This document shows, in pieces, positions 3,340 to 17,574 of a stretch of 30,594 nucleotides of DNA. The stretch's first letter is position 1. Every line of letters starts with the position of its first letter. The stretch is from Bacteroidota bacterium (GTDB lineage Bacteria > Bacteroidota > Bacteroidia > Bacteroidales > VadinHA17): the NCBI GenBank assembly GCA_030628785.1, contig DAOVQI010000001.1:1-30594 (forward strand), given 5' to 3'. The position numbers and the translations under genes are program-made. Under the pieces are notes generated by a model. That model made no database searches and had not been told where the DNA came from. It was given only the letters and a program-made list of their open reading frames with translations.

Positions 3340-3401
3340 AAACATCACCAAAGATAGCATCTTTGGTCCGACGCCTTACGAAGTAGGGCGTTTCTTTTTT
3401 T
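3340..3401 (+). ncRNA. Candidate ~60-nt two-hairpin small RNA ending in an intrinsic terminator
   Basis: Follows the promoter. Hairpin ACCAAAGAT-agc-ATCTTTGGT (3347-3367), hairpin ACGCCTTAC-gaa-GTAGGGCGT (3371-3391), then TTCTTTTTTT. No ORF. Confidence 0.55.
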
Positions 3402-3406
3402 ATAGC

Positions 3407-3525
3407 TTACTCATCATACTCGTTATCTTCCTTCCCAAACAACTCTTTCCCCTCCTGTACTTTATATTGTAATTAATGATAAAATAAAGTTCCTCTTCCG
3501 AAAAGCCATAATGTTCCGCAAAAAC
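3407..3525 (-). pseudogene. Relic 3' tail of a second Eco57I-like methyltransferase allele
   Basis: Reads VFAEHYGFSEEELYFIINYNIKYR-(1-nt deletion)-GKELFGKEDNEYDE*, matching VLAEHYGFTQEELDFIINYDIKYRMGKELEKGEMNE* of the intact gene; 3441-3525 aligns to 5261-5346 at 70/86 by hand. Confidence 0.9.
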
Positions 3526-5235: not shown

Positions 5236-8200
5236 TTACTCATTCATCTCCCCTTTCTCCAACTCCTTACCCATCCTGTACTTGATATCGTAGTTAATAA
5301 TAAAATCCAGCTCCTCCTGCGTAAAACCATAATGCTCCGCTAAAACCTTGTCGATTTCGTCTATGATAGATTTGGATTTTTTCTTTCGGTAAACATATGA
5401 TTCTACAATGCCTCTGGTAGAACTATGTGTCACTAAAGATTTTTTATTGTAATCAAGATCATTTTCTAGCTTGTCTGAAAGGTCAATTAGTTTTATATTA
5501 TCTCTGTAATTACTTTTAAAAGAGAAAATCATATAATCCTTAATATTAAACATATCAAAATTTACTGCATAATACCACCAGAATAAGTTTGAATTCAACG
5601 CACTCATAAAAAATTTTGATTTGAATTCTGATTGAAAACTAGCAGATTTGTTACTAAGTGATTCAGAATTAAATCCTTCATTCAAAAATATTAACCAATA
5701 TCTTGCTCCTGCTGTACGATAATGTATCTCATTCGAATAAACTTTTCTTGGTGATAAATATTCTTTAATCTTCTTCTGTTCAATGAATTTATTATAAATA
5801 GATTTTTCTATACTACTTGTTGATAAACGCCAAATTGTTGAATTGAAAATCCCAGTTGAATAATAAATAGAATTAAATAAACTATCTCTTTGTTCAGCAT
5901 TCCAACGTAAAACTTGGGTTGTGAATATTTTTTTTGAATTACCCCTTGTTATGAAAATCGTTAGTCTTTGATCTACACCCTCAAATAATTTTGATGGTCT
6001 TATTTCAAAATGGCTATAATACTTTGTTCCTTTCTCTTCCAGAAGACATCTCAAATCATACATATTATTGTTCGATACTGAAGTCAATGGTATAATCATT
6101 CCAACATTATTATCATCTCTTATCAGTTGAAAGGATCTTTCAATTATGTAAGCATAGAGATTACTACATTTTTCAGTTTTGTAATTAATTATTTTATAGG
6201 TATTTCTTATCTTCGTATATTCTACATATGGCGGATTCCCAATGATCACATCAAAACCGCCTTTATCGTGAATAATTTCATAAAACTCTGCAAACCAGTG
6301 GAAGGGTTGGTGGCTGGTGAGCCAGTCGCTGTATTTAATTTTCTCAGCTTGTTTATGTAAAAGCAGGTTAAGTTCGTGATTTAGTTCTTTTAGGCGTTTG
6401 TTGAGTTCATCTTTGGCTTCTTTAAAATCCTTGTAATCTTCGCCACTACCCAATTGTATTTCCTTATAACGTTGGAAGGTGCGGGCAACAATATCGCATT
6501 TTTCTTCAATTTCCTGTTTTACAATTGCACCCATCATGTCCTCAACAAGGCTTTTCTCCAATTCCTTTTCTGTTGCAAAACCAACCAGCGTATTTCCTGC
6601 CCGGATGTTAAAATCAATGTCGGGTAAAGGTTCCAGTCCCAAGTTGGGTTTATGATAATCGACATCAACCGTGGCAACCAGTTTCAGGAACAAACGGAGC
6701 TTTGCAATCTCAACGGCTTCTCTCATGATGTCAACCCCGTAAAGATTGTTAAGGATGATCTTTTTATAAATGTAGTATTTATCGCCGGGATGTTTGTCCA
6801 TTTCCAACAGCACTTCACGGAAATTGCTATGCTTTTTTAGCTGTCCTTTTTCATCGGCTTCTTTTACAAAATCGTGCATGCGGGTTATACAGGTTTCATA
6901 AAGCGGTTCAAGGATATTGAGAGCAGCGAATAAAAATGCACCCGAACCACAGGTAGGGTCCAGAATGGTTAACTTGCTGATGGCCTTGTAAAATGCATTG
7001 ATAAAATCGGAACCCTCATATTGTTCTACTGCGTCCTGAGCAAACTGTCGGATATTCAGGTTGTAAGTAATAAAATCATTTATCTCCCTGATCTTATCGT
7101 TTTCAAGTTTCTTTTTCACTTCGAAATAACGGTTGCGGCGTTCCACCACCTCTCGCCAGATTTCGGTGTAAAGGGCAATATCCTCCGGAGCGTATTTGTT
7201 CCAGGCTTTGCGTCTCTCCAGCAGGTCAGGTTTTCCGGTATCCAACCCAATCACTATTTCTTCGGGATAATCTTTGTATTTTTTTTCACCCGTTTCAGGA
7301 TCCAGATCATATATGCCATGTTGTACAGCAGGATAGATATACCTATCGGGGTCTTCACGTAGCATTTGCCATAAGCTGCTGTCTTCTCGGAACGCATTGG
7401 CACACTCCTTCTTAACCTGGTCGAACAGAAAAGGGATCACCGTGTTTTTACTAATGTATTCCGTAATATCCTCTTTGGTGTAATAAGCGCCCATGGCTGC
7501 CCGGTCGTTGATGTATTTCTCAAAAATATATCCGATCACATCGGGATTGATGTCTTTACCGGTAGCCGTGATGGTTGTATCAAGGTGCCAGTTATATTCA
7601 TCGAAAAAATCAAATATTTTTCTAAATGCGTCGTCTTTGATCTGAATGTCGTAATCCTTCTCCAGTTCATGAATATCAAACAAGCCACCATTCAGGTAAG
7701 GAATTATGCCAAGGTCAGTTTCTAATTGTTCATTTATTTCAGGACTGCCCAATCCTTTATGGAATAAAACCAACAGGAAATTCTTGTAGAAGGAGTAGAA
7801 TTTATCTTTTCCTTTTTTCTTCTGCGTTTCGTAGAGTTTGTCGCTAAGGTAATTTAGGTTCTTATCTAAGAACCCTTTCCGCTGGATGAAGTATATAAAC
7901 ATCAACCGGTTCAGCATCAATGATGCATACCAGTCTTTGTTCACTTTATTTTCTATTCCTTCGATAAAACTGAGAAAAATTGCATGCTCTTTTTTAAACT
8001 GGTCATAAAAAACCTTTGTAACTTTTTCAGCATTCTGATTGAATTGTTCCGTGACCCTTAATTTTACATCGGCAATACCAATATTTTCCTCTTCGTCAAT
8101 ACTGAAAAAAAGACCTGCCAATTTCTGATAGAGGTATTCGGGTTCCTGGTTGGTATAATACTCAACTTCGCGTATAACAATCGGTTTGTTTGGCTCACGG

Positions 8201-11860: not shown

Positions 11861-11876
11861 ATAATCAGTTTTAGTC

Positions 11877-11884
11877 CAAATTTA
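11877..11884 (-). promoter_or_regulatory. Possible -7 promoter box for the helicase-MTase operon
   Basis: TAAATTTG on the minus strand 17 nt upstream of the ATG; no clear -33 box. Confidence 0.45.
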
Positions 11885-12021
11885 GAAAAACCATTTGTAA
11901 AATTACACTCTTTTGCTAGTTTATGTCTGCTGTTTAGCATTGCGGGACTTGCAAATGTGTGTAATGTACGTAGGCATTAGAATTTTGAAATTTTTGTGCA
12001 GTATAATAAAAGATTAAAATA

Positions 12022-12039
12022 TCCCGATAGCTATCGGGA
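12022..12039. repeat. Perfect 18-bp palindrome (REP-like)
   Basis: TCCCGATAG-CTATCGGGA. Confidence 0.8.
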
Positions 12040-12147
12040 GGCCGGCAATGAGTGCCTGTGAGTCAGTCCACAAGTCAAGTTTTCAATATCAAGTTTAATA
12101 TTTCATTTAATTGTCATTTGTCATGTCTTTGTCTTTTTTCCGCTTGT

Positions 12148-12285
12148 GTATAACCGGTTTGGCAGTATGATTAGCTCCGCATCTGTCAGGCCACTGAATA
12201 TTTTATCGGTTTGACGTATTTGTTTTTTATTTGTTTTAATGCTTTTCTAATCAAAACGCGGCGTTAACTATACTGCCTGTTGAGT
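12148..12285 (-). other. attC-like recombination site (138 bp), apparently intact
   Basis: On the minus strand: begins within 3 nt of the stop of the 539-aa gene with ACTCAAC (RYYYAAC) and ends GTTATAC. Internal imperfect inverted repeat GGCAGTATAGTTAACGCCGC / GCGGAGCTAATCATACTGCC with asymmetric spacers to the AAC and GTT triplets. Confidence 0.7.
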
Positions 12286-12287
12286 AG

Positions 12288-13907
12288 TTAATAATCGGTC
12301 AAACTTAAACCTATGTTGAAAATATGAAGTTTTAAATTGTTCCCGGCTTTTTCCCATTTTTCTTTTTCATTTTCTACTATCTTATATGGTAATATGAATC
12401 CATATGGGTACAGTACTTTGGTTTGTCTAATGCACCCTTCCCTTTTTAATCCTTTGGATTCATCAAAATAGCTTACTCTGAAAAGAAAGTTCCCAACTTG
12501 TGCGCAAACCATGAAGAAATCATTTGTCATTTCTTCAGCAATTTTCCTGTCTATTAATTTTAATCGCAAAAGACTTCCCATAGCAAAAGCTCCTTTATTC
12601 ACAATGAAATTCAAATCATATGTTTCACAGTCAGCAATTTCTACCAAAAAGCCATAAGGTATTTTTCCTTCTTTTATCTCTATACAGGTATTATCAGGCA
12701 ATATGGGTGTAAGATTGGATTTTATTGAAAGTAAAATTGCCTTAACAGTAATCCATAAAGCTATCTGTTTAGCATTATGTTTGTCTAGATTTAATTCACT
12801 TAGGTTCGTTTTTAATTTTTTTGGTTCAAAGATTAGAATGGCCTTAACATTCTCTTCAAGTTGAGACATCCAGGTTGTATTACAACTTATACAAACATGA
12901 TGAGTAGTATAACCATATGAGCTTTCAGTTCCTTTGGAAAGGCCTGATTGTAACGTTGTCAGCAAGTCATCTTCGGGTAATCTTGCATGTAATATGTTAC
13001 TGAATGTTTTTTCTTCAAAATAGTTCCTCATCCATTTGGCAAAAATGTGTTCCCCACTTATATTATCAGAACCACAAAAAATGCATTTGTTCTTCTCAAA
13101 TTTCGGTATAATCGCTATCTTTTCATTTTTGCCTAATTTGGATAAAATCTCATTAATTCTTGCAAATGGTTTTATATAGTGTTTTGGTATCTCCAATTCC
13201 ATTTCTTTTTCTGAATAATTAACCAAAGTTTCATGAAAAACTAATCCTTCTTTATTGCCTGATTTAGAGCTAATAATTTTTAAATTAGTTTTTCCGTATG
13301 GGTTTAGTATATCTCTTATTTCAGATAAATAACTATACCATTCACTTTTGACTTTAATGGAAACAGTTTTTATATCATAGAGCCATGTGTAATACTTATT
13401 ATTGTTTATTGCAAAACAGTAATAACAATCTATCCAATTGATTCCGTAATGAGGATTTTCCTTATAAAACAAGAATGATTCACAAGGGATGTGTTTAGAT
13501 CCCAATATTTCCATAACTTGATTTGGCGATTCAAGTTTTCCTTGTATTAACCTCTTTGCTTCTTTTATGAAGTATCCTTTTTTGTCCGAGATTTTAATTC
13601 TACAGCCGAAATTGTTTGCAAAAATTTCTAAAGTATCGAGTAAGTCCACCTCATTTGATATAAATTTGCGTGGTATCCAATAAGCAAAACCAAACAGGAT
13701 TTCTCCATTTACTACTTGTGTGCATAGTAGTAGATGGGATAATTTATTATCACGAAATTTTTTCAGATAAAGTGAGATATCGTTCTTGAGAAACTGAGTT
13801 TTATCTGGGCTTTCAAAGGTGGAAACAACTATGTTTTCTTCAACTTTTAACTGTTTCTTAAAGATATTATTAAAATTATCTCCTAGAATTATATTATTCA
13901 TCAGCAA
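12288..13907 (-). CDS. Two-domain protein: unknown N-terminal half + C-terminal HNH/His-Me finger nuclease-like domain
   Basis: CIFCGSDNISGEHIFAKW and VCISCNTTWMSQLE (CxxC...EH / CxxCN). The real start may be the ATG at 13901. Confidence 0.7.
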   Translation of the reverse strand: MLMNNIILGDNFNNIFKKQLKVEENIVVSTFESPDKTQFLKNDISLYLKKFRDNKLSHLLLCTQVVNGEILFGFAYWIPRKFISNEVDLLDTLEIFANNFGCRIKISDKKGYFIKEAKRLIQGKLESPNQVMEILGSKHIPCESFLFYKENPHYGINWIDCYYCFAINNNKYYTWLYDIKTVSIKVKSEWYSYLSEIRDILNPYGKTNLKIISSKSGNKEGLVFHETLVNYSEKEMELEIPKHYIKPFARINEILSKLGKNEKIAIIPKFEKNKCIFCGSDNISGEHIFAKWMRNYFEEKTFSNILHARLPEDDLLTTLQSGLSKGTESSYGYTTHHVCISCNTTWMSQLEENVKAILIFEPKKLKTNLSELNLDKHNAKQIALWITVKAILLSIKSNLTPILPDNTCIEIKEGKIPYGFLVEIADCETYDLNFIVNKGAFAMGSLLRLKLIDRKIAEEMTNDFFMVCAQVGNFLFRVSYFDESKGLKREGCIRQTKVLYPYGFILPYKIVENEKEKWEKAGNNLKLHIFNIGLSLTDY

Positions 13908-13915
13908 GTAATTCT

Positions 13916-13965
13916 GACCAACGTTTTTATAACGTATTGTATATTAGGACTATATAAAGTTGCAG
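13916..13965 (-). other. Collapsed/degenerate attC-like site
   Basis: Plus strand: gaccAAC-gttt..., then ttatAAC-gtattg-TATAT-taggact-ATATA-aa-GTTgcag. Same AAC + 6 nt + stem...stem + GTT layout as 12148-12285 but only ~40 bp. Confidence 0.4.
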
Positions 13966-14004
13966 TTTTTACCCTATTTATCCTAATTATTATTTTGTTC
14001 TAAT

Positions 14005-14535
14005 TTATCTTAAATCAGGTATTTTATACTCTTTTTTCAGGTATCCAATAAATTCTAATGTATTCTTGAAAGATTCACCAAAAAATGAGAACATTTCCAT
14101 ATCTGTCAAACCGTCAGTATATGGTAAAGTGTCTTGTATTGAAAAGTCAGCGTTTTGATTCACAACTGTCTCGGTTATGACGCTACCTAATAAGGACCCA
14201 CTTTGAGGATTTGCTACCCACTTGTTGTAGGCATAATGATAATTTGCATATCGTTTACCTATCTCTTGATAAAACAATTGAATTTCATTTTCTTATAGTC
14301 CAATGTCGTCACATAGTTTCTGATGTAACATATTCTTATATTCTTTTGAAGGGATAGTTAATGAAATTACCCATAGAGAGAAAATTTTTGTCTCAAGGCT
14401 TAATAGCTGTTCGTCTCCAGAGAAATCAGTCTTTTCTTTAATATAATCCTGAAGTCCCTTGTCTATCTTAATTCTTACATCTAAAAGGGCGTTCAGTAAT
14501 TCATCAAGGGTAAGTTTTCTCCTAAATAGTTTCAT
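14005..14535 (-). pseudogene. Hypothetical 176-codon gene interrupted by one in-frame TAA
   Basis: ORFs 14293-14535 and 14005-14277 are in the same frame: ...DDIGL*ENEIQLFYQEIGKRY... Confidence 0.8.
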
Positions 14536-14548
14536 TTTCTTTTAATTT

Positions 14549-14568
14549 TGTACAATGCATTGTACGCA
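14549..14568 (-). other. attC-like site reduced to its two fused ends
   Basis: TGTACAA-tgca-TTGTACGCA between a stop codon (14573) and the next start (14535); resembles ...TACAA(C) and (G)TTGTAC... ends with the interior deleted. Confidence 0.45.
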
Positions 14569-14572
14569 GTTA

Positions 14573-15313
14573 TTATTTAATCTTTCCTGATAATTTACTT
14601 TCAAAAATTTCCGCTGTCGGATTATATTTTGAAATTAATGCTTCAACTATTTGTCTATCACCTAGTACACATTTTGGACCAATTACTATCTTCATTTCTT
14701 TTAAAGACTCTATATTCAAATCTACATCATAAAACTCTATACTAGGCGGAATCCTTTTATCGATAAATTTCTCATAAGCTACTGGGAAATTTTCTATAGA
14801 CACATTAGGGTCAAATGGATAAATTTCCATTTTGTACCTTACCTCATCTTCTATTTTCCAGATAGTTCTTTTTCTTAGACCTAAAGCTGATGTTTTTAAA
14901 CCAATATCTGTTCTGATTTTAGGAAAAAGTCTATCTTCATCATCAGTATACTCTACTAAAACTGGTTTATTTTCAGCTGGCAATATGAAGATTCTTTTTT
15001 GATCATTCAAAGAATCATTTTTAGTTATAATAAAATCTGAATAATCACCAATCTTATAACTATTAAAGACAGGTGTAGGAAGCTCAATTCTTATTCCCCT
15101 CATTTTATCTGTATACATATTCCATAAAGCAAAATTTTCCTCTGAATTTTTTGTCCAACAAGAAACAAACATATACATTGCCATTGCCCCAAAATCTTTG
15201 GAAATACCTTCATTTGGATCATTAACAAGGTCAAGCCGATTAAACCTAATTTTTTTTGAATCAAGAATTAAAGCTAATTTATTTATAGAAGAATAATGAA
15301 ATAATTCTGTCAT
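14573..15313 (-). CDS. DUF2971-domain protein
   Basis: LFHYSS...IRFNRLDLVNDPNEG, FVSCWT...NFALWNMYT, WKIEDEVRY, IVIGPK pattern typical of DUF2971. Confidence 0.75.
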   Translation of the reverse strand: MTELFHYSSINKLALILDSKKIRFNRLDLVNDPNEGISKDFGAMAMYMFVSCWTKNSEENFALWNMYTDKMRGIRIELPTPVFNSYKIGDYSDFIITKNDSLNDQKRIFILPAENKPVLVEYTDDEDRLFPKIRTDIGLKTSALGLRKRTIWKIEDEVRYKMEIYPFDPNVSIENFPVAYEKFIDKRIPPSIEFYDVDLNIESLKEMKIVIGPKCVLGDRQIVEALISKYNPTAEIFESKLSGKIK

Positions 15314-15387
15314 AGCTATATTATAATTTGCTTTTGCACTGTTTAATAGTCAATGAAATAGTTCAGTCTGTCTTTTTGGGAAATTGC

Positions 15388-15413
15388 GTATAACTCATTT
15401 ATAAAATTATGCC
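15388..15413 (-). other. Right half of an attC-like site (left half missing)
   Basis: Minus strand GGCATAATTTTAT-aaatga-GTTATAC: same GTTATAC core as 12148, 75 nt upstream of the DUF2971 ATG. No complementary arm found upstream. Confidence 0.5.
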
Positions 15414-15517
15414 TTTTCAGTAAATACTACTTAATATTGTGTTAATATACATATTTCCGAAAAATTATTCAATATTAAAAACCGGATAAAAAAAATAAAA
15501 AAATAGGGACAGCATCT

Positions 15518-15848
15518 GCAGCAGCCATCTCTCTTGTTGATGAGCAAATAGGAAGGGTAATAAAAGCTTTGAAAGAGACAGGACAATATGAAAAATACGT
15601 TAATTTTGTATACAGCAGACCACGGAGACATGATTGATGGGCGATCAAAACATGTGGAGAAAATGCTTAAACTACTTGAAGGGAAAATACCGTGGCGGAA
15701 AATACTGGATATGGAACATAGCAAGATATATGAAAAAGAAAATGCCTGGGTGGCTCTGACAGATGGAAGGTACAAATATGTATATTTTACATTAACCGGG
15801 ACCAAGCAGTTATTTAACTTAAAAACAGGAGGAAATTATTATGATTAA
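15518..15848 (+). pseudogene. Sulfatase relic (5'-truncated, frameshifted, internally deleted)
   Basis: AAISLVDEQIGRVIKALKETGQYE, +1 shift in the A run at 15591-15595, then NTLILYTADHGDM (sulfatase DHG motif) and LTDGRYKYVY...QLFNL. Confidence 0.8.
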
Positions 15849-17376
15849 TCAAAAAAAAGCAAAATTATTATCCATTATCATTATTGGGGTACTGGCTTAT
15901 ATGTTTATGCCAGAATTAGTGAGAGCTAAGGGAATTACAAAGATATATGTAGTATTCACCTCATCTGGTTTGCAAGGCGAAGCTAGAACTTACCAAATAT
16001 ATCATCCCGATGCAAAAATAATGTCGAATGAAGAAATATTGGGAGCATTGAAAGAAAGATGCCAAGGTGTTGAATTTATTGTTGCGGATACAAGAGATCA
16101 AAGAAAGGTTATTGAAAAAATAAAAGAAGAAAAGGAAAGTTTGGATGGAGTACTTTTCTTCGGTCGTCCGCCATATGAATTAGCATCAATCGGACTACCT
16201 ATAGTAGCTGTCCATCCTCTTTGGGGACAATGGCAACATCCTTTTTTTTATTATATTAAAGGGAAAAAGCTTTTAGCATCTGTTTTGCCTGTAATACCTG
16301 ATGTAGATGAAACTATCTATGCATCTCGGCTGGAAGATATAGCAGGAAAAATTAAGTTGATTCAGGGTATATCAAAAATGAAGGGTTTGAGAGTATTGGT
16401 AGTTACAGATAATCCTGTTCTAGGTGACTATGAACCATCATATTTACAAACTGGACCAACCAAAGAAGACAGAAAAGAATATGAGAAAGTTTATCTTAAT
16501 AATTTAGAAGAGATATTTGGGACAGAACTTGTAACCATACCACAAAAAGAATTATTTGGAAGAATAAATAAGGTTGACCAAAAAGAAGCTGAAAAAATTG
16601 CAAAAAAATGGATTAATGAAGCTGAAGGGATAAAGGGTACCAATAAAGAACAGATAGTAAGGTCGGCCAAACTTTACTTATCTATGAAAGAATTGATGGC
16701 GAAATATAATACTCAGGCAATAACAACGGAAGGGTATTGTCATTTCCAGCCAAGAGGAGAGGGTTGTGGAAACTTAGAAGGATATCCTGATGGTATTCCA
16801 TCGCAAGGTTTACCATCTGCTCAATTTTTTTCAGATGGTATTGTGGCTACTTCTGAAACTCTAATAGATGCACTAATTATTCAGCAGCTTGTTTTATACA
16901 CTACAGGCAAAGCTGGATTTTGTGGAGATTTTATGATAGACCCACCCACTGAAACAGTTACTATTGGTCATTGTGAATTCTCGCTTAAACTTAACCCTTA
17001 CAGTGATGAGGGAAAACTTCCTTATATTATAAGAAATTTACCACTGGTTGAAGAAAATAAAGGTGGTGCTTGTGTACAAGTAAATTTACCAATAGGTAAG
17101 AAAGTTACAGTAGCTATAATAAACATGCATCAGAAAAAAATACATGTTTTTACAGGAAAAACCGTTAATGGCGAGAATTATTTCAAACACTGGGTGGATG
17201 TAATATGCAGGTCAAAATTGATAATTAAAACCAATGCAAAAGCAATAGCTGAAAATGATGATAGCGAAACATTCGGTAATCATCGGGTAGCATTTTATGG
17301 TGATCTTAGACAAATGTTTAAGGATTTGGGCACTTTGATTGGATTTGAAGTAGTTGAGGTAGATATATCGGATTAA
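15841..17376 (+). CDS. L-fucose/L-arabinose isomerase-like protein with N-terminal signal peptide or membrane anchor
   Basis: TSETLIDAL, GFCGD, TIGHCE, CRSKL and FGNHRVAFYGD fit the FucI/AraA-type metal-binding C-terminal region; hydrophobic N-terminus LLSIIIIGVLAYMF...VRA. Confidence 0.65.
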   Translation: MINQKKAKLLSIIIIGVLAYMFMPELVRAKGITKIYVVFTSSGLQGEARTYQIYHPDAKIMSNEEILGALKERCQGVEFIVADTRDQRKVIEKIKEEKESLDGVLFFGRPPYELASIGLPIVAVHPLWGQWQHPFFYYIKGKKLLASVLPVIPDVDETIYASRLEDIAGKIKLIQGISKMKGLRVLVVTDNPVLGDYEPSYLQTGPTKEDRKEYEKVYLNNLEEIFGTELVTIPQKELFGRINKVDQKEAEKIAKKWINEAEGIKGTNKEQIVRSAKLYLSMKELMAKYNTQAITTEGYCHFQPRGEGCGNLEGYPDGIPSQGLPSAQFFSDGIVATSETLIDALIIQQLVLYTTGKAGFCGDFMIDPPTETVTIGHCEFSLKLNPYSDEGKLPYIIRNLPLVEENKGGACVQVNLPIGKKVTVAIINMHQKKIHVFTGKTVNGENYFKHWVDVICRSKLIIKTNAKAIAENDDSETFGNHRVAFYGDLRQMFKDLGTLIGFEVVEVDISD

Positions 17377-17453
17377 TTCCGATTCAAATATTTCAAATTA
17401 GATAATTAGGTTAGAAAAATAGGGATAGCTTTCTAATTTTATCAGGACAACAC

Positions 17454-17489
17454 TATTACCATGCTGTCGGTTGTTTCCAACCGACAGTT
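17454..17489. repeat. 36-bp direct repeat, copy 2, followed by a second hairpin
   Basis: Identical to 2565-2600; then TCAGGTG-aaaa-CACCTGA at 17497-17514. Confidence 0.95.
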
Positions 17490-17574
17490 TTCAGTGTCAG
17501 GTGAAAACACCTGATATCATTAAAACAGATAAAAAAATATGTACATTTATCCTTATTTAATAAATTATTGGAAC

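Follow-up and report, generated by a model that had tools for sequence, protein, structure and literature searches.

Are three AT-rich genes in the defence island of a sediment bacterium the cassettes of an integron and, if so, which recombinase brought them there? Integrons are best known from Proteobacteria, and the DNA considered here comes from a genome recovered from cold-seep sediment; the relatives of its proteins are found in Bacteroidales, e.g. Marinifilum and Prolixibacteraceae. The genes lie at positions 12148–15413 of a 30.6-kb stretch (the window), which is the entire contig C315 of a 74%-complete assembly (3.07 Mb, 414 contigs). A preliminary description, made from the sequence alone, had read them as an array of single-gene cassettes without integrase, with an AAC...GTT element of divergent geometry at every boundary. 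We conclude that this region is probably the decayed head of an integron-type gene-cassette array within a defence island, left over from mobile cassettes of a gene-capture system found across Bacteroidales, and that its layout departs from that description in several respects.

The central observation is a 138-nt element directly 3' of the 539-amino-acid (aa) open reading frame and on the same strand, with its R'' core starting at 12285, 2 nt past the TAA stop (12290–12288). The long imperfect stem and asymmetric spacers that had been described are borne out: the element ends in R'' ACTCAAC (12285–12279) and R' GTTATAC (12154–12148), and between them two 20-nt stem arms (12161–12180 and 12258–12277) are 80% complementary, with spacers of 1 nt after AAC and 5–6 nt before GTT. 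The two cores fit RYYYAAC and GTTRRRY with one departure, a T at the second purine position of R'. A covariance model, R1, built from 19 sites of other genomes and excluding the window's own site, matches the element full-length (model positions 1–132; 27.6 bits, E 4e-5) and, at E<=10, has no second match in the window. A scan for the duplex architecture also has this element as its sole match there (-25 kcal/mol), with 0 matches in shuffled sequences, and the element has family sequence words in common with sites in loci L052, L086 and L103. By the features that can be tested in sequence, 12148–12285 is a real integron-type attC. The Rfam search that had been proposed gives no match over the whole window at E<=1, and Rfam contains no attC family. 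BLAST of the element against its own genome finds no sequence copy, a result that is misleading because attC sites are alike in structure more than in sequence.

The sites modelled by R1 form a large family. Over about 130 nt before leader-type starts, the sequence is variable and the architecture constant: a YAAC core, a 1–2 nt spacer, a long imperfect stem with the words GTATA ... CATAC in common, a 4–6 nt spacer (often RACC) and a GTTA core. The architecture scan finds 40 such sites in 150 kb of fetched loci and none in shuffles, and 16 of the 17 predicted pairs of the R1 stem show compensatory changes; the family also shares unequal spacers and two A-C mismatches, which would be G-T in the other strand. 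Sites occur in tandem, nine of them co-oriented inside 8 kb on one Bacteroidales contig (L067). Six arrays, including those on contigs C37 and C179 of the genome studied here, have 17 junctions between sites; in 15 of these, the closing heptamer of one site is exactly the reverse complement of the opening heptamer of its successor, where chance would give a match at 1/256 per junction. Such a 7-base chain rule is characteristic of integron cassettes that are exchanged at G|TT (the bar marks the crossover).

As had been anticipated, a covariance model built and run against the genome finds similar sites at other gene boundaries, 14 in all on 10 contigs. Three clusters, on C37, C179 and C239, qualify as clusters of attC sites lacking an integrase (CALINs; Cury et al. 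2016, PMC4889954). Within the bacterial family, 67 of 121 genomes have R1 sites, with 19 of 20 genera represented. The spacers at our locus are indeed unequal, but this geometry is not peculiar to it; among the sites compared it is the norm of the large family, which includes a site just past a RelE/RelB pair and beside a 456-bit IntI in a Neomarinimicrobiota genome (L180). Likewise, the GTTATAC said to be shared by two boundaries is present at 12148–12154 and 15388–15394, and the exact 11-mer GTTATACRCAA is found solely at 12144–12154 and 15384–15394, but it is no locus-specific signal, because most family R' cores begin GTTA and GTTATAC is among the commoner forms.

Given an R1 match with both cores in register, and a family with the chain rule, covariation and arrays beside recombinases, ordinary terminators or repetitive extragenic palindrome-like repeats, with AAC and GTT ends arisen by chance, are a very improbable explanation of the 138-nt hairpin and the remaining spacers. 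Such an explanation would accommodate the fold energy of the element, which as DNA is unremarkable (z -1.2 to -1.6), the unrelated hairpin repeat families of the genome (2565–2604 and 17454–17493; 12021–12042), and the three of four boundaries that are not attCs. It does not sit well with the 138-nt stem itself, which has no T-tract after it.

The claim that an AAC...GTT element marks every boundary fails, since R1 finds 12148–12285 alone and the spacers at 13903–14007, 14530–14578 and 15314–15395 fold no better than their shuffles (z -0.8, -1.4 and +0.6). By these tests, one of the four flagged boundaries is an attC and the other three are not. At the first of the three, homology between the window and locus L211 ends at 13986, where L211 enters its 132-nt attC; by this comparison, the attC of a two-gene cassette, intact in L211, has been lost at 13908–14004. 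A 75-nt TTAGAAC...GTTATAA candidate in this spacer (13926–14000) has no support from R1 or folding. The second spacer, 14536–14572, was rejected as a cassette boundary, as no GTT follows its palindrome, R1 does not match, and it lies inside the two-gene unit; the palindrome shows a compensatory change, GTACAAT..ATTGTAC in the window and in locus L212 versus GCACAAT..ATTGTGC in L211. The third, the apparent core at 15388–15394, is the 5' end of the two-gene cassette, because the window unit starts GTTATACGCAATT at 15394. The homologous cassette start reads GTTGTACGCAATT in L211, with chain-rule attCs on both sides of the unit there, and GTTATACGCAAT in the C37 array of the same genome and in L103.

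The three genes are co-oriented and AT-rich, as described, all on the minus strand with a G+C (GC) content of 28.5–32.2% versus 37.8% for the genome. The cassettes are not all single-gene. Homologues of the 176-codon gene in L211 and L212 are always preceded by a DUF2971-like gene, and in L211 the pair forms a single cassette that starts G|TTGTACGCAATT and has its own 132-nt attC of 53 bits, whose first 7 bases, GTACAAC, complement that start. As the pair travels together in both of these loci, the window's 246-aa and 176-codon genes are a single unit (Table 1).

The 246-aa product, a candidate defence protein of the DUF2971 family, has a Pfam DUF2971 score of 17.7 bits (below the cut-off), a PADLOC PDC-S31 match at E 5e-5 and an Atlas value of 0.97 to DUF2971 clusters. 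The 176-codon gene contains an in-frame TAA (14293–14295), whereas its homologues are intact at 175–183 aa, so that it is a pseudogene or carries a sequencing error. The 539-aa product is a putative nuclease, with CxxC...H / CxxC motifs and a weak HNH_5 lead in its C-terminal ~270 aa; a 537-aa protein of the nearest relative, locus L009, is 96% identical and is encoded beside the same restriction-like operon. A PDB sequence search, Pfam, NCBIfam and PADLOC give no family for the 539-aa or 176-aa protein.

Table 1. Features of the cassette locus and its flanks (window positions).
Feature	Positions	Strand	Remarks
Conserved ~290-nt leader of next cassette (HKD-SNF2 + methylase operon)	11861..12154	-	starts GTTATAC-ACAAGCGG (R' core)
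attC of 539-aa gene cassette	12148..12285	-	R1 covariance model; 138 nt
539-aa gene (putative nuclease)	12288..13907 (ATG at 13902)	-	30.5% GC; N-terminal part without known family
AT-rich spacer, predicted site of lost attC of two-gene cassette	13908..14004	-	no R1 match, no structure
176-codon gene	14005..14535	-	32.2% GC; second gene of two-gene cassette
Palindromic hairpin, 16 nt	14550..14565	-	in spacer 14536-14572, between two genes of one cassette
246-aa DUF2971-family gene	14573..15313	-	28.5% GC; first gene of two-gene cassette
5' end of two-gene cassette	15314..15394	-	begins G|TTATACGCAATT at 15394
Conserved non-coding ~100-nt element	15392..15497	-	ends GAG|TT; recurs three times in genome

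To the left of the attC, homology to other genomes of the order extends leftwards from 12154 through a leader of about 290 nt and starts sharply at GTTATGC every time. Nine other loci have the leader conserved before restriction operons that differ from one another. In L052 it stands at the head of a 6.6-kb restriction cassette with an attC at either end, the cores matching (GTTATGC / GCATAAC). From these comparisons, the restriction-like operon with its leader is a cassette type in itself; for the HKD-SNF2/methylase operon of the window, no closing attC was found. The leader recurs over about 190–270 nt at 73–86% identity, starting GTTATGC-ACAAGCGG, before restriction-type operons of different kinds, in genomes that carry the labels of several phyla (L052:897-1226, L123:748-1077, L124:7570-7899, L032, L033, L069 and L073). 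A search of genome contigs for the exact 15-mer GTTATGCACAAGCGG gave mostly chance matches in unrelated phyla and about 15 real loci. In the window, a 22-nt hairpin repeat is inserted in the leader at 12021–12042; this repeat occurs genome-wide, with 4 further exact copies.

On the right, copies of the ~100-nt element are found at C190:2621-2716 and C276:11375-11482, in the two sister species (G001 and G002), and in L009 and L212. In all copies, homology stops at GAGTT and different genes follow. On C276, a 320-nt insert closes with a 70-nt attC (21.9 bits) whose R'' (TCATAAC) obeys the chain rule with the junction GTTATGA. The element is a recurrent insertion point for variable genes and may be an orphan attI-like or attG-like site. 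It is not itself an attC (no R1 match, no fold, z +0.5), and it has no similarity to the attI beside IntI in G002. A 9-mer, CGGAAATAT, is common to the element, the attI of genome G109 and the tail of C206, and is given here as a lead only. A metagenome scan for the element re-found the G001 locus and nothing further.

The genes are the last part of a low-GC island (2.7–15.5 kb) surrounded by glycan-use genes, in which they follow a DprA-like gene, an HTH-peptidase/DUF4411 pair, an Eco57I-type methylase and an HKD-SNF2 helicase. The island border is a decayed sulfatase fragment (15500–15848) that lacks its N-terminus and is frameshifted near the conserved TADHGD stretch, and is a pseudogene. 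A 2-kb segment (15489–17530) comprising this remnant and a 511-aa reading frame is skipped in L009 and in contigs from two other sediment studies; its joint has a 9-nt repeat, pointing to a deletion/insertion polymorphism beside the island. A ~36-nt hairpin repeat at 2565–2604 and 17454–17493, unrelated to the 22-nt family, was considered as the island borders and rejected, as it has more than 10 copies genome-wide and no specific bracketing. A tRNA search of the window found none.

The preliminary description placed the recombinase elsewhere in the genome and proposed a search for a linked one. The window contains no tyrosine recombinase and lacks the adjacent intI, attI and promoter of a complete integron. 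A TIGR02249 search of the genome, in its 74%-complete assembly, gives nothing above the cut-off. Among relatives, canonical IntI (TIGR02249 above cut-off) is found in both sister species (406 bits in G002; 288 bits in G001, where it is cut by the contig end); 7 of the family's 121 genomes have it, and 7 of 401 from the order. A different gene stands at the head of family arrays: an Xer-like recombinase gene is directly upstream of and on the same strand as the arrays in genomes G109, G073 and G106, and in L211 it lies 72 nt from the first attC. This recombinase matches the IntI model at positions 3–179 and 242–314 only, so it lacks the IntI insertion, which is not conserved in all integron-like recombinases (Smyshlyaev et al., PMC8138268). 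Our literature search turned up no account of Bacteroidales arrays that have a recombinase lacking the insertion at their head.

In G109, the chain rule puts the attI crossover 128 nt past the Xer-like gene. The genome studied here has four homologues (on C102, C206, C79 and C86), each ending 109–381 nt before the contig end that it faces, which suggests that the assembly breaks where repeated arrays would begin. The recombinase would be encoded elsewhere in the genome and is most likely, judging from these arrays, an Xer-like array-head enzyme, or else a canonical IntI of the sister-species type. The second option could be taken further, with the cassettes being classical ones moved by an IntI that is missing from the incomplete assembly and the Xer-like genes irrelevant. 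IntI in both sister species and in 7 of the 121 genomes, and the family site beside IntI in Neomarinimicrobiota, agree with this, as does C239:7542-7637 (minus strand), where a 32-aa IntI C-terminal remnant, 66% identical to that of the sister species, lies between two same-strand attCs. We nonetheless find it doubtful, as none of the six IntI loci examined has an R1 site closer than about 1.5 kb, R1 sites are present in 67 genomes versus 7 for IntI, and the G109, G073, G106 and L211 arrays start beside genes without the insertion.

The gene content of this spot differs between strains, as L009 and L212 show. In L009, a 195-aa cassette with a 56-nt attC (15.3 bits) takes the place of the two-gene cassette, and the 138-nt site is truncated to its 5' half, with window positions 11969–12189 missing. 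In L212, a 97%-identical strain, the two-gene cassette is present, a cut-short 539-aa gene runs into the 3' tail of the methylase, and the entire restriction module and the toxin-antitoxin pair are absent (L212:1730-1971 versus window 3340–3415 and 5236–5274). Three further samples have an intact attC beside the leader. Between the near-identical strains (L009 and L212), 3–4 base differences cluster within 6 nt after GTT at both junctions, which puts the strain breakpoints about 9 nt away from the canonical crossover (window 13918–13926 and 15386–15394). The integron reading was to be given up if similar elements were absent from other gene boundaries in the genome or its relatives and gene order were fixed across strains; it is retained because similar sites occur elsewhere in the genome and the strains differ at this spot.

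It is also conceivable, though somewhat less likely than not, that the locus is a dead relic, with its present variation (L009, L212 and the 15488–17531 deletion) produced by deletion and by homologous or illegitimate recombination and not by cassette recombination. One attC is lost, another is truncated in L009, and one gene has a stop codon; breakpoints fall about 9 nt from G|TT, L212 fuses the 539-aa gene to the methylase tail, and the 2-kb joint has 9-nt microhomology. What speaks for cassette recombination is that L009 holds a different cassette, with its own small attC, at exactly this position, and that at least three more samples retain the attC intact.

Several observations weigh against the reading as a decayed cassette array. 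Only one attC survives at the locus, and it scores low for its genome, where other sites mostly reach 36–64 bits. The 5' end of the 539-aa gene has no GTTGAGT to match R'' ACTCAAC, so that the chain rule does not extend to this locus, and the window and L009 diverge about 9 nt past GTT instead of at G|TT; given this mismatch and this offset, the junction is not a clean product of the canonical reaction. At the junctions of the ~100-nt element, the chain rule holds in just 1 of 5 testable cases, no recombinase gene adjoins the element, and its comparison with the regions downstream of the genome's Xer-like genes is not significant (p 0.04–0.47). No recombinase is linked to the locus, and the enzymes named above are candidates for acting on these sites. 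Finally, no excision joints were seen in contigs of four runs, although contigs, unlike reads, cannot show rare circles.

Weighing these points, we retain the decayed-array reading. On the minus strand, the layout would begin with the conserved ~100-nt element up to GAG|TT, followed by a two-gene cassette (the DUF2971-like gene, the internal hairpin and the 176-codon gene with its stop) that has lost its attC, a one-gene cassette with the 539-aa putative nuclease and the intact 138-nt attC, and a very large cassette composed of the ~290-nt leader and the HKD-SNF2/methylase operon. Cassettes of the family would move as circles: a tyrosine recombinase would cut the folded strand of the attC at G|TT and join it either to a second attC or to a target in double-stranded form. 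The cassettes presumably reached the locus via this reaction, and the locus may now be largely fixed, changing mostly by deletion and replacement. Of the CALIN layout first proposed, the integron-type cassettes and the recombinase-less window stand; with one attC, what is left is a decayed remnant. The locus is a single attC without integrase, a 'SALIN' by published naming (Loot et al., bioRxiv 10.1101/2022.09.11.507474), and not a CALIN, for which at least two attCs inside about 4 kb, with intI absent nearby, are required.

Compared with known systems, the locus and its family share with attC sites, CALINs and SALINs the imperfect hairpin with RYYYAAC / GTTRRRY-type ends directly after a reading frame, the tandem arrays with the G|TT chain signature, and the many sites far from an integrase; insertion of cassettes at non-att genomic points resembles the attG type described in the same study by Loot et al. 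Unlike known attCs, family sites are long (127–140 nt) with unequal core-stem spacers (1–2 nt versus 4–6 nt), and the window has a T at the second purine position of its R' core and a single site left. Unlike known integrons, the family arrays in relatives are headed by a recombinase without the IntI-specific insertion. For Bacteroidetes, IntegronFinder 2.0 (PMC9024848) lists isolated integrases (In0) and one complete integron, in Salinibacter.

Sedentary chromosomal integrons are stores of anti-phage systems (Darracq et al., bioRxiv 10.1101/2024.07.02.601686). The family cassettes are similar in carrying DUF2971 and nuclease-like proteins, toxin-antitoxin pairs and restriction-like systems, and differ in their Bacteroidales host and in their size, up to 6.6 kb with a conserved ~290-nt leader. 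A bolder and tentative proposal, which we think rather unlikely as a whole, is that environmental Bacteroidales have an integron variant of their own, with Xer-like-headed arrays, restriction-operon cassettes opened by the ~290-nt leader, and orphan double-stranded landing pads of the 15392–15497 type. If the landing pads are real, cassettes could be planted at several chromosomal sites far from recombinase genes, seeding defence islands.

What remains at the locus is a worn piece of a real cassette system; that system is an integron variant, and most of the interest lies with the variant and not with the locus. With its intact, truncated and lost attCs and its replaced cassettes, the locus offers a natural decay series of how arrays become ordinary defence islands. 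One attC family is present in more than half of 121 genomes from a single Bacteroidales family, mostly far from a canonical integrase; defence genes travel in its cassettes, in the largest case as entire restriction operons, and a simpler recombinase of Xer-like type stands at the start of its arrays. If this enzyme is the recombinase, attC recombination would not depend on an insertion that has been considered essential to how integrons work.

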